64,000 nt of DNA from an uncultured delta proteobacterium (GTDB taxonomy: Bacteria; Myxococcota_A; Polyangia; Palsa-1104), in the NCBI GenBank assembly GCA_963785725.1, contig CAWAWS010000014.1:32001-96000 (forward strand), in the 5' to 3' direction. Below are positions 48,482-61,438 of this stretch, piece after piece. Under the pieces are notes generated by a model, which saw only the letters and a list, made by a program, of their open reading frames with translations, was not told where the DNA came from and made no database searches. Every line of letters starts with the position of its first letter. Position 1 is the stretch's first letter. The translations under genes were made by a program, and so were the position numbers.

Positions 48482-48540
48482 CCGGGCAGATCATCGCCCT
48501 TGTCAGATTGGGTTGTCAATTTGTGGTAACGTCGCGAACC

Positions 48541-50050
<1,510 letters not shown>

Positions 50051-54449: not shown

Positions 54450-55211
54450 GTGATCGACAGCTACCTCAAGATGATCTGGAACTTCTGCTCGCGCATGACC
54501 CTGTCGACGCAGGATGCGCGCGAGGCGACGTTCGAGACCTTCGAGCGCGCCGCGCAGAGCGGCCATCCTCCTGCGGATCCGAAGGAATTGGAGCTGTGGC
54601 TGCTCAAGATCGCGGCCCACGTCATCGAGAAGCGGCTGCCGCCGACGCCGGAAGTCGACTTCGATCTGCTCGACGAGACGCTGCGCTCGGACGCCACGCG
54701 CACGCACGAAGTCTCGTCGCTGACGACGCCCGAGCGCGAGTTTTTGCTGTGGGAGCTGAAGCAAGGCTGCATGACGGCGGTCATCAACTGTCTGTCGCCG
54801 GGCGAGCGCGTGGCCTTCGTCATGTCGTCGGTGATGAGCAAGACCGACGAGGACGCCGCCAAGGCGCTCGGCATCAAGCTGTCGGCGTTCAAGGTCCGTC
54901 TGTCGCGCGCGCGCAAGAAGATCGGCGACTACTTGGCGCCACGCTGCGAGCACGTCGATCCGCGTAATCCTTGTCATTGTCCGTCGCGCATCGGCATCGC
55001 GCTCGCCAAAGGCTTCATCGCGCCGCCGCAGACGTCGGTGGTGCAGCTGCGCGTGCCGCAGCGGCCGTTCGATCAAGAGATCAAGTCGCGCGATTCGAAC
55101 CGGATCTTTCAGACGCTGCCGGAGCCGGAAGTGCCGGCTGAGCTGGTCGAGCAGCTGCGACAGGCGGCGGCGACCGGCGCGTGGACCCCGAAGGCCGTCG
55201 CCAAGAAGTAG
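54450..55211 (+). CDS. ECF sigma factor with a Cys-rich C-terminal extension
   Basis: Region 2 (DAREAT, WLLKIA), region 4 (FKVRLSRAR), tail CEHVDPRNPCHC. Confidence 0.82.
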   Translation: MIDSYLKMIWNFCSRMTLSTQDAREATFETFERAAQSGHPPADPKELELWLLKIAAHVIEKRLPPTPEVDFDLLDETLRSDATRTHEVSSLTTPEREFLLWELKQGCMTAVINCLSPGERVAFVMSSVMSKTDEDAAKALGIKLSAFKVRLSRARKKIGDYLAPRCEHVDPRNPCHCPSRIGIALAKGFIAPPQTSVVQLRVPQRPFDQEIKSRDSNRIFQTLPEPEVPAELVEQLRQAAATGAWTPKAVAKK

Positions 55212-56428
55212 CGCGCTCGTCTTCCGCGCGCCTCGCCGGAATCGTCGCTGCCGCCGCGCTGTTCGCGGTCGCGCCGCGTGCCGCGTGGGCGCAGATCGCG
55301 CGCGGCTCGACCGTCGTGACGCACACGGCGTGGGCCTCGTGCGCCGGCGACGGCATGGCGCCGCCGCTCGAGCGCGCGGGCGCGGCCGTGCCCTACTCGG
55401 CGCAGCTGTCGGCGTTCGTCGAAGGCTGGGGCGTGCCCTATTCCGGTCGCGACGTGCGGCTCACCGATCTCGACGCCGTCGACGGCAGCAACGTCTACTT
55501 GGCCACCGCGCGCCTCGCCGCCTGCGGACAGCTGCACACCGGCTGGGGCGCGTTCGCGTGGAACTTCGGCTACGAGCCCTACGCGGTCGACGAAGCGGGG
55601 CAGCCCGATCACCGCGAATGGGGACGGCTGACGGCGGCCGAGGTCGGTCTCGCGCCCTTCCGTTGGCTCGTGCTCTCGATCGGCGTGCGTAAAGTCGCCT
55701 TCAGCTTCGGTCACGACGAGCCGGTGGAGATGTTGGAGCTGCCGGTGCGCCCCTATATTTCGCAGTCGGTGGCGCCCGATCGGCGGCTCGGCCTCACCAT
55801 CGACGACGACTTCGGCGTCGCCCACGTCGTCATCGGCCTCTACGAAGGCAACCGCGATCTCTCGATCACCACCCAAGGCGGCTTCCTGTTGGCGGCGCGC
55901 CTCGTCGCCGAGCCGCTCGGTCCCGTCGGCAACACGGTCTCGACGGTGTTCGACCCCGAGTATTGGCGGCCGCGACCGCGCTTCGCCTTCAACGCGTCGA
56001 TCTTGCTGCAATTCGCCGACGGCAACACCACTTACGCGCTGGCGGCCGACGGCGTCTTTCACTGGGGGCCGATCGGCCTCGCGGGCGAGTTCATCTACAG
56101 CTCGGGCACGACCGTGGAGGCGCCGACGCGCTTGGCGCTGCGGCCGGCGCCGCTGCGCGACGGCTTGTACATCGAGGCGGTGGCGATGCTGTGGCGTCCC
56201 TGGATCGAGCTGTCGGCGCGCTACGACTGGATGAACAACGCCGGACAGGCGGGGCAGCAGTTCCACGCCTTCACCGCCGGGGCGACGGTCTATGCGGTGA
56301 AGCAGTATTTGCGGCTGCAAGCGCTCTACACGCACAAGCTGCACTTCGACCTCTTGCCCAATCGCCCCGACATTCAAGACGACGTGCTCCTGTTCGCGGC
56401 GTCGCTGGCGCTCGAGAAGAACTTCTAA
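55181..56428 (+). CDS. Porin-like outer-membrane beta-barrel (start uncertain)
   Basis: Signal peptide ending AWA|Q, beta-strand pattern, terminal Phe. Confidence 0.72.
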   Translation: MDPEGRRQEVARSSSARLAGIVAAAALFAVAPRAAWAQIARGSTVVTHTAWASCAGDGMAPPLERAGAAVPYSAQLSAFVEGWGVPYSGRDVRLTDLDAVDGSNVYLATARLAACGQLHTGWGAFAWNFGYEPYAVDEAGQPDHREWGRLTAAEVGLAPFRWLVLSIGVRKVAFSFGHDEPVEMLELPVRPYISQSVAPDRRLGLTIDDDFGVAHVVIGLYEGNRDLSITTQGGFLLAARLVAEPLGPVGNTVSTVFDPEYWRPRPRFAFNASILLQFADGNTTYALAADGVFHWGPIGLAGEFIYSSGTTVEAPTRLALRPAPLRDGLYIEAVAMLWRPWIELSARYDWMNNAGQAGQQFHAFTAGATVYAVKQYLRLQALYTHKLHFDLLPNRPDIQDDVLLFAASLALEKNF

Positions 56429-56503: not shown

Positions 56504-59089
56504 GTGGGCCACGTCGTCGGCATCGATCTCGGCACCACGAACTCGCTGTGCGCGTGCATGCGCGGCGAGCGGCCCGAGATCATCGTCAACGCGGCCGGGC
56601 AGCGGCTGACGCCGTCGGTGGTCGGGCTCGATCGCGCGGGCCGCTTGCACGTCGGCGAGTCGGCGCGGCATCAGCGGCTGGCGCTGCCGGAGCGGACGGC
56701 GGCCGAGTTCAAGCGGCTCATGGGCTCGACGACGAAGCTGCGGCTCGGCGACCGCGAATACTCGCCCGAGGAGCTGTCGGCGCTCGTGCTGCGGCAGCTC
56801 AAAGAGGACGCCGAGCGCCACTTGGGCGCGCCCGTCACCGAAGCCGTCATCACGGTGCCGGCCTACTTCACCGACGCGCAGCGCCGCGCGACGAAGGAGG
56901 CGGGCGAGCTGGCCGGCTTCGCCGTCGTCGAGCGCATCTTGAACGAGCCGACGGCGGCGGCGCTGGCCTACGGGCTCGATCACCTGGACGCCGAGCAGCT
57001 GGTCCTCGTCTACGACTTGGGCGGCGGCACGTTCGACGTCAGCGTGCTCGAGCTGTTCCAAGGCGTGCTCGACGTCAAGGCGGCGGCCGGGAACAACCAC
57101 CTCGGCGGCGGCGACTTCGATCGCCTCGTCGCCGAGTGGCTGGCGAGCGAGTTCGCGGCGGCGCACGGCGTCGACCTGCGCGGCGATCCGCTGGCGCTCC
57201 TGCGACTTCGCGTCGCCGCCGAGGAGGCGAAGCGCGAGCTGTCGACGCAGCTGTCGACGATCGTGCGCCTGCCGTTCGTGGCCGTGCGCGCGGGCGAGCC
57301 GCTGTCGCTGGAGCTGGAGCTGACGCGCGACCAGCTGGAGCAGCTCATCGGGCCGCTGGTGCGCTCGACGCTGCAGCCGCTGGCGCTGGCGCTGCGCGAC
57401 GCCAAGCTCGATCGCGGCCGCATCAGCGACATCGTGCTCGTCGGCGGCAGCGCGCGCATTCCGCTGGTGCGCCGGCTGCTCGGCGAATACTTCGGCAAGG
57501 AGCCGCGCGCGGGCGTGCATCCCGACGAAGCCATCGCGCTCGGCGCCGCCGTGCAAGCGGGCTTGAAAGCGGGCGCGACGTCGTCTGCCATCTCGGGCGC
57601 GCGCGGCATCATGATCACCGACGTCAGCCCGTTCACGCTCGGCGTCGAGGTCTCGTCGAGCCGCGCCGGCGGCATCTTCTCGCCCATTATCCCGCGCAAC
57701 TCGACGGTGCCGATCGCACGCACCGAGGTCTATTCGACGACCGCCGCCGACCAGCGCGTCGTCGACATCAAGGTCTACCAAGGCGAAGCGCGGCTGACGC
57801 GTGACAACACCTTGCTCGCCAGCTACAGCATCGACGGCATTCCGCCCGCGCCGGCTGGTCACGAGAAGGTCGCCATCACCTTCACCTACGACTTGAACGG
57901 CATCTTGAACGTGCGCACCAAGATCGTGTCGACGGGCAAAGAGGCGCAGCTCGTCGTCCTCGAGCCGGCGCGCGCGATGACGCAGGCGATGGCGCGGCAG
58001 CGGCTGGAGCGCGAGTGGGCGCCGAGCGACCGGGAGGCGGCGCTGCTCGAGGTGGTGCGTCGTCCCCGCCACTTCGACGCGCATTATCGGCTGGCCGAGG
58101 CGCACTTCGCGGCCGGCGACGACGCGGCGGCAATCGCAGCCGTGACGACGGCGCTGGCGCTCGGCGGCGACGGCGACGGCAACGCGCGGCGGCTCCTGGC
58201 GCGCGCCTACGATCGCGCCGGTCGCGCCGACGACGCCGAGCGCACGCTGCGCCAGCTCGTCGCCGGCGCGCCCGAAGACGCGGCGGCGCGCGACGACTTG
58301 GCGACGCACTTCGTGACCCGCGGCCGGCTCGACGACGCGCTGGTGCAGTTGGAAGAGGCGGCGCGGCTGGCGCCTGGCGACCCGCGCTGGCGGCGCCAGC
58401 TCGCCGAGCTCTACCGTCGCCAGCGTCTGCTGCCGCAAGCGCGCGCGGCGCTGGCCGCGGCGTTGACGTTGGCGCCCGACGACGCCGCCGTCGCGGCCGA
58501 GCTGCGCGCGTTCGTGCGCGAGGGCGCGGCCGACCCGACCGACGTCGCGCCGGCAATCGGCAAGCTGGGCGTGCTCGGCTGGAGCGCGGTCGGCGGCGCC
58601 GTGTCGCCGCTCGAAGCCGTAGCCGTCGCCGGTCGCGGCCAGCTCGTGTGCAGCGGCAACTTGGGCGCGCTCGGTCGCGAAGCGGCGATGGTGGCGTTCT
58701 CGTGCTTGAAGCTGCTGGCGTCGACGTGGCAGCTGGACGCGCGCATCGCCACGCATGACCTGCACTTGCACTTCGGCGACAGCGACATCGGCAAAGATGG
58801 TCCGTCGGCGGGCTTGGCGCTGTGGTTGGCGGCGGCGTCGGCGCTCATGCAGCGGCCGCTGCGGGCGCAGCTGGCGGCGACGGGCGAGCTGACGCTGCAC
58901 GGCGACGTCAAAGCGGTCGGCGGCGTGCACGAAAAGCTGGTCGCGGCGCGGCTGGCGGGTGTGCGCACGGTGCTGATGCCGCGGCGCAACGCCAACGCGC
59001 TCGGGAAGCTGCCGGCGGAAGTGACGGCCAAGCTCCAGATCGTGCTCGTCGACTCGGTCACGGAGGCGCTGGCGCACGCGCTGGCGTGA
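56504..59089 (+). CDS. Hsp70-TPR-Lon protease (S16) fusion protein
   Basis: Hsp70 motifs GIDLGTTNS, TVPAYF, EPTAAA, DLGGGTFD, VGGSARIP and DLNGIL; TPR-like helices; Lon motifs DLHLH, KDGPSAG, TGELTL, VGGVHEK. Confidence 0.93.
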   Translation: MGHVVGIDLGTTNSLCACMRGERPEIIVNAAGQRLTPSVVGLDRAGRLHVGESARHQRLALPERTAAEFKRLMGSTTKLRLGDREYSPEELSALVLRQLKEDAERHLGAPVTEAVITVPAYFTDAQRRATKEAGELAGFAVVERILNEPTAAALAYGLDHLDAEQLVLVYDLGGGTFDVSVLELFQGVLDVKAAAGNNHLGGGDFDRLVAEWLASEFAAAHGVDLRGDPLALLRLRVAAEEAKRELSTQLSTIVRLPFVAVRAGEPLSLELELTRDQLEQLIGPLVRSTLQPLALALRDAKLDRGRISDIVLVGGSARIPLVRRLLGEYFGKEPRAGVHPDEAIALGAAVQAGLKAGATSSAISGARGIMITDVSPFTLGVEVSSSRAGGIFSPIIPRNSTVPIARTEVYSTTAADQRVVDIKVYQGEARLTRDNTLLASYSIDGIPPAPAGHEKVAITFTYDLNGILNVRTKIVSTGKEAQLVVLEPARAMTQAMARQRLEREWAPSDREAALLEVVRRPRHFDAHYRLAEAHFAAGDDAAAIAAVTTALALGGDGDGNARRLLARAYDRAGRADDAERTLRQLVAGAPEDAAARDDLATHFVTRGRLDDALVQLEEAARLAPGDPRWRRQLAELYRRQRLLPQARAALAAALTLAPDDAAVAAELRAFVREGAADPTDVAPAIGKLGVLGWSAVGGAVSPLEAVAVAGRGQLVCSGNLGALGREAAMVAFSCLKLLASTWQLDARIATHDLHLHFGDSDIGKDGPSAGLALWLAAASALMQRPLRAQLAATGELTLHGDVKAVGGVHEKLVAARLAGVRTVLMPRRNANALGKLPAEVTAKLQIVLVDSVTEALAHALA

Positions 59090-59101: not shown

Positions 59102-61438
59102 ATGGCCGATCCGACGAGCTTCTACCAGATCTTGGGCGTGGCGCGCGACGCCGACGAGCGGGCGATCAAGACCGCCTACTTCACGCTGGTGCGCAAGCAT
59201 CCGCCGGAGACGCACGCCGTCGAGTTTCAGCGGCTGCGCGAGGCCTACGAGATCTTGTCCAACCCCGAGTCGCGCGCCGAATACGACGCCGTGCCGCAAT
59301 ACGACGCGCATGGCGCGCACGTCGCGGCCAAGCTGCAGGCGGCGACCGAGGCCATCGACGGCGGCGACTGGCCGCGCGCGCAGGCCGAGCTGACCGCCGT
59401 GCTCGACGAGAAGCCCGATCTGCACTTCGCGCGCGATCTATTGGGCATGGCGTTCTTGAACGCGCATCGGCCGGCGGACGCGATGCGCGAGTTCGCCCGC
59501 TTGACCAGCGAGCAGCCACACCATGCCGCCTATCGGCTGCATCAGGGTTACGCGCACTACGCGCAGAATCAGTATCCGCCGGCGCTCGACTGTTATCGCC
59601 AAGCGAGCGCGCTCGATCCGAGCGACGCGCGCGCGCTCGTCGCCAGCGCCGACTGTCTGGTGGCGCTCAAGCAGTACGAGCCGGCGCTGGCGGAGCTCGA
59701 TCGCGCCATCGCGCTCGATGTCACCGTCGATCTGCAGGACTTCGTGTTCCTCATGCGGCGCGTGCAGATTCAGCTCCTGCGCGGCCGCACCGACTTGGCC
59801 GACGCCGAGCTCGACCGCATCGCCGGCGCGCTGCCCGACGACGCCGAGACGCGGAAGTATGTCGCCACGCGGCTGGCCTCGCTGGCGTCGGATCTGTTCG
59901 CGCTCAAGCGCTCCGCCGACGCCAATCGCCTGCTGGCGCGCTGTCGGACGCTCGATCCGTCGCGTAAATCGATGGCCTACACGTTTCCGGCGCGCACGCG
60001 GCTCGGCATCGCGGCGCTGCCGCCGTCGTCGCGCGATTGGCTCGCCGAGCAGGCGCACACGCGGTCGCGCGGCCTATTGCGACAGAATGCCAAGGTCGCG
60101 CCGATCGTCTGGCTCGTCGTCGCGCTCGGGCTGCAGCTGCTGGCGCTGTCGTCGGCGTTCGACGGCGGCGAAGTGTGGAGCTGGCCGCGCAGCCTGGCGA
60201 TGCTGGCGCTGTTGCTGACGGCGCCGCTCGTGCTCGCGTGGTCGATCCGCCGGCTCGTGCACGTCATGCGCAGTCCTTACGGGCGCTATACGATCGTGCA
60301 TCCCTGTCACGTGCTGCAGGTCGACATCGACGACGTCACCGTGTGGCCGCTGGTGAATCTGCACGACGTGGCGCTGACCCATCAGACGTCGAACGGCAGC
60401 TATTCGCACACGCTTTGTAAGCTGAATTTCGCAGGCGCCAGCTGTCAGATCGTCGTGCGCGGGCAACAGCAGGCGATCGATTGGGCCGATGTCGTGCTCG
60501 AGCAGCGCCGCAAAGTGCTCGACCTGCTCGGCATGGGCCTGTTGGAAGCGGAGGAGGGGTTCGACATCGTGCCGCCGGCGCTGCTGCAGCCGTCGCCGCC
60601 GCACGCGTCGTCGCGGCCGGCCGGGCGTGAAGCCGCGCTCGCGTATGCGCTCGCCGTCGTCCTCGGCGCGGCGACGTTCGCGCTGGCGCTGAAGGTCAAC
60701 GGCGGCGCGCCCGAGCGGCAGGCGTGGCGCACCGTCGCCGACAGCGGCAACGCGGCGCGGCTGCGCGGCTACCTCGAGGCCTATCCCGACGGGCCGCACG
60801 GCGACGCGGCGCGCGCGGCGCTGCGTGCGGTCTACGCGCGGACGATCGTTCGGCTGCGCGAGTCGGCGCCGGGCCGGACGACGCTCGGCGGCGCGCTCGT
60901 CGCGGCGCTGGAGACGCTGGCGCGGCACGAGGGCGCGCCGGTGCGGCTCGTCGTCACGCCGACGATCGCGCTCGCCGGCGCCACGCAGCCGGGGCTGGTC
61001 GCGCCGGCGGCGGCGTTCGGCGACGCGGCGCTGCGCAATCGCGCGCTCATGCTGCGCGGCCGGCTGCGCGCGCTCTTGGCGGAGGTCGTCGGGCCGGGCA
61101 CGATCGAGCTCGGCCACGATGACGGAGACGACCGCCAGGGCGCGCCGCTGACGTTCGCGCTCGACTATGGCGTGCGGCCGACGGACGCGCTCTATCACAC
61201 GAAGTCGGGGCTGCCGCGGAGCTTCTGCGGGCTCGAATTCGCGTTCACGCTGACGATGACGGACGATCGCGGACGCGAGATCTACCGCCTGCAGCAGACG
61301 TCGCGGCAGTCGGTTACGGATGTCACGCGGCTGCCGGCGGTCGCCGAGGACGATCTGCTCGTCTACGACCGCATGATGCAAGCGGCGTTCGTCGAGCTGC
61401 TCGATCGGCTGCGCGTCGAGCTGCAGCTCCCGCGCTGA
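59102..61438 (+). CDS. Membrane-anchored J-domain + TPR protein with a non-canonical J motif
   Basis: FYQILGV...IKTAYFTLVRKHPPE...FQRLREAYEILS...RAEYD; TPRs; three hydrophobic helices. Confidence 0.88.
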   Translation: MADPTSFYQILGVARDADERAIKTAYFTLVRKHPPETHAVEFQRLREAYEILSNPESRAEYDAVPQYDAHGAHVAAKLQAATEAIDGGDWPRAQAELTAVLDEKPDLHFARDLLGMAFLNAHRPADAMREFARLTSEQPHHAAYRLHQGYAHYAQNQYPPALDCYRQASALDPSDARALVASADCLVALKQYEPALAELDRAIALDVTVDLQDFVFLMRRVQIQLLRGRTDLADAELDRIAGALPDDAETRKYVATRLASLASDLFALKRSADANRLLARCRTLDPSRKSMAYTFPARTRLGIAALPPSSRDWLAEQAHTRSRGLLRQNAKVAPIVWLVVALGLQLLALSSAFDGGEVWSWPRSLAMLALLLTAPLVLAWSIRRLVHVMRSPYGRYTIVHPCHVLQVDIDDVTVWPLVNLHDVALTHQTSNGSYSHTLCKLNFAGASCQIVVRGQQQAIDWADVVLEQRRKVLDLLGMGLLEAEEGFDIVPPALLQPSPPHASSRPAGREAALAYALAVVLGAATFALALKVNGGAPERQAWRTVADSGNAARLRGYLEAYPDGPHGDAARAALRAVYARTIVRLRESAPGRTTLGGALVAALETLARHEGAPVRLVVTPTIALAGATQPGLVAPAAAFGDAALRNRALMLRGRLRALLAEVVGPGTIELGHDDGDDRQGAPLTFALDYGVRPTDALYHTKSGLPRSFCGLEFAFTLTMTDDRGREIYRLQQTSRQSVTDVTRLPAVAEDDLLVYDRMMQAAFVELLDRLRVELQLPR

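Follow-up and report, generated by a model that had tools for sequence, protein, structure and literature searches.

A membrane J-protein with a histidine-free triad, its dedicated HscC-like Hsp70 and an unusual protease add-on in Myxococcota

The 64,000-nucleotide stretch of DNA analyzed here (the window) encodes a membrane J-protein that reads PPE where canonical J-domains read HPD, next to a gene that fuses an Hsp70 to TPRs and a Lon protease domain (Table 1). The J-protein and its Hsp70 are a real and conserved pair akin to HscC-DjlC, extended in an unusual way by a protease. The module is best read as a dedicated membrane J-protein plus an HscC-like Hsp70, similar to DjlC-HscC without being a strict member of that system. 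We found no description of the family, or of an architecture with Hsp70 in place of the AAA+ part of Lon, in the literature searched.

A 2026 review (PMC13254874) presents HPE as seemingly the sole tolerated change to HPD, calls non-HPD motifs enigmatic and leaves it unsettled if departures of other kinds arose by accident or through selection. Bacterial DnaK derivatives are called largely unexplored in PMC13580251. The present family offers a direct test of the HPD rule, combining a His-free triad, strong purifying selection and a co-inherited Hsp70 that differs at contacted residues. If the PPE J-domain stimulates, the two proteins would form a natural orthogonal J/Hsp70 pair and the rule would change. 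The module also points to a protease architecture in which Hsp70, rather than an AAA+ ring, supplies the Lon domain with substrate. The operon is present in cultured strains of Corallococcus, which opens it to genetics.

Table 1. Features of the J-protein gene and the preceding fusion gene, in window coordinates
Feature	Position	Strand	Basis
Partner gene, Hsp70-TPR-Lon_C fusion, 861 aa (P0002)	56504..59089	+	Pfam; junctions bridged by other runs' contigs
HscC-like Hsp70 (residues 1-505), catalytic residues retained, C-terminal lid bundle gone	56504..58018	+	
TPR block of fusion; unfused relatives have about 190 aa more	58052..58513	+	Pfam, comparison
Lon protease domain without AAA+ module	58541..59083	+	Pfam Lon_C E 2.8e-45
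Lon dyad, Ser768	58805-58807	+	
Lon dyad, Lys811	58934-58936	+	
Membrane J-TPR protein (P0001), 778 aa	59102..61438	+	ORF, Pfam, AlphaFold2 mean pLDDT 90.5
J-domain, residues 7-62, DjlB/DjlC-like short loop	59120..59287	+	Pfam DnaJ E 1.9e-14
PPE triad, residues 34-36, at HPD position	59201..59209	+	Alignment; modelled contacts Hsp70 T372, P403, N464
TPR solenoid, residues 72-284	59315..59953	+	Pfam, AlphaFold2, Foldseek
PH-fold domain, residues 322-480, hairpin after first strand, predicted cytoplasmic	60065..60541	+	VIA-align
Predicted TM hairpin, TM1 332-352, TM2 364-384	60095..60253	+	Hydropathy, AlphaFold2, homologs
Predicted TM3, residues 512-532	60635..60697	+	Hydropathy, AlphaFold2; 47/59 homologs at KD>=1.5
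Helical stalk with YLxxYPxG, residues 536-587, predicted periplasmic	60707..60862	+	Y557 invariant; AlphaFold2
HpaA/LptE/CsgG-like alpha/beta domain, residues 614-777, predicted periplasmic	60941..61432	+	VIA-align, Foldseek

The J-domain and its triad

A first-pass annotation of the window had described the open reading frame, the 12-nt gap before it, the register of LVRKHPPE, the TPRs, three membrane helices and a YLEAYPDG motif. Open reading frame, Pfam and hydropathy analyses and a 62-homolog alignment confirmed all of these. The start codon lies 12 nt past the stop of the 861-aa Hsp70-TPR-Lon_C gene, Pfam DnaJ scores 53.9 bits against a cut-off of 27.8, and the AlphaFold2 model of the J-domain has four helices. 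LVRKHPPE occupies residues 29-36. We aligned 69 close homologs, 7 rows of which have no J-domain; among the remaining 62, the HPD motif is missing, with P (52), S (9) or N (1) in the His column. His33 falls in the Tyr column, where homologs have F, Y, H or C (His in 8 of 62). Given this spread in the preceding column, the triad reads PPE, and the His seen in LVRKHPPE stands in the Tyr position.

PPE might have been a change unique to the window gene, a possibility ruled out by the His-free triad found across the family. Close homologs that are named come from Polyangia and other Myxococcota. To define the wider family we took the best 150 matches of a profile search over 1.84 billion representatives, excluding proteins longer than 1300 aa. 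Its 109 J-domains carry PPE (76), PPD (10), SPE (10), TPE (6) and HPD (one) among other triads, and His is missing in 108. PPE is thus the mark of a very large J-TPR family, and the Lon gene is absent beside most distant members. Among the matches listed, many have the full architecture and many are J-TPR proteins with other C-termini. Three such xPE J-TPR proteins, P0256 (a Hint match), P0071 (weak) and P0247, carry Hint or TcaA NTF2-like domains. Foldseek with the whole window protein returned TPR matches only, and leads from Atlas searches all stayed below 0.9.

The J-domain aligns without gaps to E. coli DjlC (33% identity over 45 aa). It has the short helix II-III loop xPETxPxxF, reading PPETHPEEF here and HPETDPQGF in E. 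coli DjlB/DjlC; DnaJ is without this loop. Rough dN/dS values of 0-0.19 in 8 pairs show the His-free J-domain to be under purifying selection, as judged from sequence comparison. We also examined F27, a Lys-to-Phe change in helix II that makes the tightest contacts in the complex model described below, as a unique mark of insulation. It is not specific, because an HPD-type myxobacterial J family carries Phe as well.

The partner Hsp70 and its inheritance

The partner Hsp70 retains D8, K70, R151, E171 and T199, together with the HPD-contact residues R167, Q378 and P419 (DnaK numbers). Overall it resembles HscC no more closely (42% identity) than E. coli DnaK (46%). Against the list of HscC features in section 12 of PMC8215388, the deletion of DnaK 76-101 is present, with 2 of 26 columns filled as in HscC, and both DnaKs of the same genome are without it; the review, in the part available, describes this deletion as common to many non-proteobacterial DnaKs. 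The insertion of 4-8 residues in loop L1,2 is also there: the loop has 13 residues in the window Hsp70, as in HscC, and 17 in most relatives, against 9 for DnaK. The GrpE signature loop, absent on that list, is present here, as loop 282-300 has DnaK length. The cleft salt bridge R56-E264 is lost and the equivalent of K55-E267 is present, a retention that the same part of the review allows for some HscCs. Like HscC, the protein has T at the position of DnaK L392 and T/S at D477. A short 204-217 loop was discarded as a special mark, since the DnaKs of the same genome have the same loop.

The L392 position follows the J-domain motif. Beside xPE J-domains it is HscC-like (T in 44, V in 6 and A in 1 of 51 readable Hsp70s), and beside HPD J-domains it is L in 12 of 12. 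This covariation of linker and motif is a single split on the tree, not a series of independent events. A quick Hsp70 tree places the partner outside the DnaK clade, at an unresolved fork with the long-branched E. coli HscC. Two further Hsp70s deserve mention. The first, encoded at L091:1580-3169 beside an xPE J-protein, is very long-branched and carries H in place of R167 and R in place of Q378. Myxobacteria also have a second dedicated pair (L115, L123-L147; in the source genome C18:24457-26349), in which an HPD J-protein with YF in helix II precedes a short Hsp70 of about 530 aa with an LLLLD linker.

We modelled the J-TPR region (residues 1-290) with its own Hsp70 (1-508) and ATP, as the first-pass annotation had proposed. 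The model scored 0.63, and the best of three controls, none of which used DnaK as a rival partner, scored 0.00; agreement between runs reaches 36% of contacts or more, with a partner pLDDT of at least 79. The mark used is reached by 116 of 157 solved pairs and 2 of 215 mismatched pairs. In the model the J-domain sits at the canonical Hsp70 site. The result supports canonical J-Hsp70 docking as a prediction, and since the DnaK-DnaJ structure is solved, the pass may reflect memory of that complex and show likeness only.

A dedicated pair should be inherited together, and this expectation held. The full-length J-protein occurs in 13 of 61 genomes. The partner Hsp70 type occurs in 12 of these 13 and in none of the other 48, the exception being a genome 51% complete; we scored at most 21 Hsp70 candidates in each genome, many of the genomes are incomplete, and related ones do not count as independent. 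No HPD J-gene accompanies the operon at the loci surveyed. The genome's sole GrpE match lies on another contig beside DnaK-DnaJ, so the annotated lack of GrpE in the window, though true, says little.

The proposed likeness to HscC-DjlC proved apt. With E. coli HscC-DjlB/DjlC the module shares the short-loop J-domain, the acidic E in the triad, membrane anchoring and an adjacent specialized Hsp70, which itself has the lobe-I deletion, the L1,2 insertion and the residues at L392 and D477. Unlike DjlB/DjlC, which have HPE and a tail anchor, the J-protein has PPE, TPRs, three TM helices, and PH and periplasmic domains. The Lon protease partner and the retained GrpE-signature loop also set the module apart from HscC-DjlB/DjlC.

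The Lon domain, the fusion and the membrane module

The window Lon_C domain has the Ser-Lys dyad, which is intact at 42 of 42 Lon-bearing loci, and rough dN/dS values of 0.07-0.21 in 5 pairs point to constraint. It is preceded by Hsp70 and TPRs rather than an AAA+ module, and TIGR00763 reaches 147.8 bits against a cut-off of 608. NCBIfam and PADLOC matches of the fusion are confined to the Lon domain, the PADLOC match being BrxL. A Lon_C dyad on a non-Lon module recalls the motor-less Lon-domain proteases CalpL, SepM and the BrxL-type Lon domain. Unlike these, the present protein has no SAVED/CARF or PDZ domain and no CRISPR or BREX context, and is TPR-linked and Hsp70-paired or -fused.

At the 24 GTDB loci (23 plus L058), Hsp70, TPR-Lon and J genes stand in this order in 15. 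Lon and J lie at a contig end in 2, bringing the loci with Lon in between to 17; Hsp70 and J occur without Lon in 3, J is alone in 3, and one locus is cut. Lon immediately precedes J in 25 of 80 metagenome loci. Another 20 of the 80 have a shorter xPE J-protein beside Hsp70 with no Lon match, which suggests that protease coupling is an add-on, and the weakest matches in the set are HPD proteins. The clade of L040, L044 and L045 has Hsp70 and J with no Lon neighbor, and an orthologue was absent from the two of its genomes that were searched. At the metagenome locus L073, neither Hsp70 nor Lon lies beside the J gene. The J genes at L046, L047 and L049 are not orphans, as each genome has a related Hsp70 and Lon pair elsewhere, and one has a second complete operon.

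The "Hsp70-Lon enzyme" of the first-pass annotation therefore stands in part: a Lon-type protease is linked in most relatives, and the fusion itself is rare and one clade lacks the Lon gene. Most relatives have separate Hsp70 and TPR-Lon genes, which rules out the fusion as the normal form; it is derived and rare, present in four records only (the window, P0083, P0084 and L085). In the window fusion the lid bundle of Hsp70 is gone, together with some 190 aa of TPRs. L085 is a second type of 1048 aa, lidless with those TPRs present, so that both full-length types are lidless. Trees put the L085 fusion apart but do not reject a single clade of fusions, with p-AU values of 0.54 (Hsp70) and 0.064 (J). 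All 8 other family members with a TPR-Lon region match its TPR part alone. A Rickettsia felis plasmid gene annotated as a Lon/S16 protease (rows H4, H5) likewise matches the TPR part of the query, and TPR-Lon fusions may thus exist elsewhere.

Hydrophobic peaks of the J-protein lie at residues 332-350, 364-382 and 512-530, and KD>=1.5 is reached at the three helices in 58, 58 and 47 of 59 aligned homologs. A single C-terminal tail anchor is absent; the protein instead has its three hydrophobic helices inside the chain, followed by a C-terminal region of 246 aa with YLEAYPDG at residue 557. AlphaFold2 gives residues 296-778 a mean pLDDT of 90.8. The best PH-type match is the TFIIH Tfb1 PH domain (VIA-align Z 8.9, rmsd 3.6, 92 aligned), with many other PH/PTB rows. 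The outer domain matches HpaA (Z 9.5, rmsd 4.2, 142 aligned), with Cj1090c and LptE matching too and HpaA, LptE, CsgG and PelC among its Foldseek rows. Both matches have modest Z values, and function does not follow from a common fold. Folds of the HpaA/LptE type are typical of envelope lipoproteins.

The PH match starts before TM1 and resumes after TM2, which suggests that the hairpin is inserted and places the PH domain on the J/TPR side. Mean K+R counts in 59 homologs fall from 2.6 ahead of TM1 to 1.1 within the hairpin loop; they are 4.6 past TM2, 3.6 ahead of TM3 and 2.4 beyond it. Together with the PH placement, they support by prediction the topology annotated earlier, with J and TPRs inside and the C-terminus outside; the PH fold is predicted inside and the HpaA/LptE fold outside. 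In 9 of 10 genomes fetched (from 17 further matches in 400) the membrane module also exists apart from any J-domain, and in P0217 and P0223 it is joined to an HPD J-domain. L059-L067 encode such stand-alone proteins with a TM-PH-TM-YP-LptE-like module, and we saw no common neighbors beside them.

In 14 loci a fourth gene, for a predicted membrane TPR protein, follows the operon; none was found in the source genome. Examples are L052:10292-12040 and L079:9379-11121, of about 580 aa, with a hydrophobic N-terminus in some, a beta-rich part and TPRs. P0180 and P0201 are fusions of its product with the J-protein family; in P0180 it stands after TM3.

Proposed function and alternatives

We propose that the predicted three-pass inner-membrane J-protein would fire its Hsp70 at the membrane through the PPE J-domain. 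The Hsp70 would seize a specific client associated with the membrane and hand it over to the TPR-Lon protease domain, and the outer domain, PH domain and TPRs would choose client or site. The core would be J-protein plus Hsp70, with a motor-less Lon added in most membrane-type members and sometimes fused in exchange for the lid. In the source genome the fusion would hard-wire protease to chaperone, TPR-Lon occupying the former place of the lid. That the J-protein binds its partner Hsp70 selectively is very probable, and the altered motif may insulate the pair from DnaK, as suggested in the first-pass annotation. The J-domain, lacking His, probably also stimulates the Hsp70 ATPase, and the balance tips modestly toward Hsp70 feeding Lon, whose AAA+ motor it likely replaces. 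The full reading, in which the co-inherited J-protein drives only its own HscC-like Hsp70 and thereby feeds a specific client to motor-less TPR-Lon, has about an even chance of being right. No conserved client gene was found near the operon at the loci surveyed.

The same layout, with a single outer domain on TM3, could instead make the J-protein a sensor. Its outer domain would register an envelope cue and switch the J-domain on across the membrane, and Hsp70-Lon would cleave a regulator or kill the cell. The outer parts are the least constrained (rough dN/dS 0.26-0.68, with 0.26-0.52 for the outer domain, vs 0-0.19 for the J-domain) and exchangeable, P0180 having the fourth-gene domain there instead, but these values are still below 1 and compatible with relaxed constraint. 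The window, L033, L034, L037 and L077 have an ECF sigma gene upstream of the operon, but it is adjacent in close kin only, and the 185 neighbor genes at 25 loci include no conserved anti-sigma, effector or regulator gene. That the membrane module occurs alone, without J, also speaks against sensing, and J-domains are not known to be gated across a membrane. In CalpL-CalpT-CalpS, a Lon that lacks the motor is activated by a signal (bioRxiv 10.1101/2024.05.08.593097). On balance we consider the sensor unlikely. A specific version, in which a ligand at the LptE-like outer domain exposes the His-free J-domain and the private Hsp70, replacing the Lon AAA+ ring, has one inner-membrane target cleaved, is likewise doubtful. 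With no defense-island signal, effector or anti-sigma gene found at the loci surveyed, the phage, toxin or other named envelope trigger suggested earlier is unsupported. A role in anti-phage defense altogether is very unlikely. The patchy distribution (13 of 61 genomes), the use of Lon domains in BrxL and CalpL and the type I R-M genes downstream of the operon at 2 of 4 Corallococcus loci (L053, L054) would suit it, but PADLOC on 137 representative neighbors at 25 loci (L058, at 56% GC, was left out of the neighbor scan) gave that R-M pair as its only convincing match. The rest are generic (kinase, deaminase, methylase, OmpA/MotB), so the expected proximity to defense islands did not materialize. 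In addition, the window locus, flanked by adenosine deaminase, ECF sigma, metB and CBS genes, is syntenic with congeners and with housekeeping genes across genus and family, and 80% coverage of the J-TPR query is reached by none of the plasmid records. The GTPase conflict systems that contain Hsp70 (Kaur et al. 2020, PMC7159879) occur in multicellular bacteria and likewise combine it with partners fused to DnaJ or TPRs, but their GTPases, FNIII proteins and GrpE were not seen here, and Lon goes unmentioned in the available part of that paper.

A different challenge concerns the triad. Replacing His (QPD) abolishes stimulation in the systems tested, and HPE alone is known to be tolerated (PMC8215388, PMC13254874). 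His33 of DnaJ bonds the DnaK linker and is needed in those systems (PMC8215388), a bond that proline is unable to form. The PPE domain might act as Pam16 does, binding Hsp70 to tether or restrain it while leaving hydrolysis unstimulated, an option that the 2026 review leaves open for altered motifs (PMC13254874). With type IV (pseudo) J-proteins such as Pam16 and DNAJB13 the present protein shares a clear J-fold and a non-conservative HPD change; unlike them, it belongs to a large family that is under purifying selection and whose own Hsp70, inherited along with it, also differs in the linker. The P-[ED] half of the triad and the Hsp70 contacts are retained, the Hsp70 catalytic residues are intact, and no HPD J-gene comes with the operon. 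We regard the tether, to which the known need for His lends some weight, as improbable. Lastly, the fusion could be an assembly artefact or a decaying operon, since apparent frameshifts occur elsewhere in the assembly (48508-50050) and the fusion lineage has long branches, its outer domain being 21% identical to the family vs 44% for an unfused congener. P0083 and P0084 have a junction identical to that of the window, and contigs of runs X1 and X3, from two studies, span it without gaps, which largely rules out the artefact. Moreover, 30 of the 40 listed differences fall at third codon positions and 1 at a second. Artefact and decay taken together are a highly improbable account, and we retain the dedicated J-protein/Hsp70 pair with its protease as the preferred reading.

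Several minor features of the assembly and the neighborhood were recorded. A sigma-54 response regulator is split over several frames at 48508-50050, suggesting indel errors in the assembly, and a DnaK-like gene on contig C18 is in two pieces. A promoter and terminator scan at the operon found no more than chance level. The ECF sigma gene (54450-55211) has a Cys-rich C-terminal extension. At 55181-56428 lies a gene for a 415-aa protein with no Pfam match, which is also upstream of Hsp70 in the congeners L033 and L034; it ends in Phe, as outer-membrane barrels do. In Corallococcus (L052-L055), a 165-aa membrane protein is encoded directly before Hsp70, and an AAA_33 and Thg1 pair lies upstream of Hsp70 at 3 of the 4 loci.
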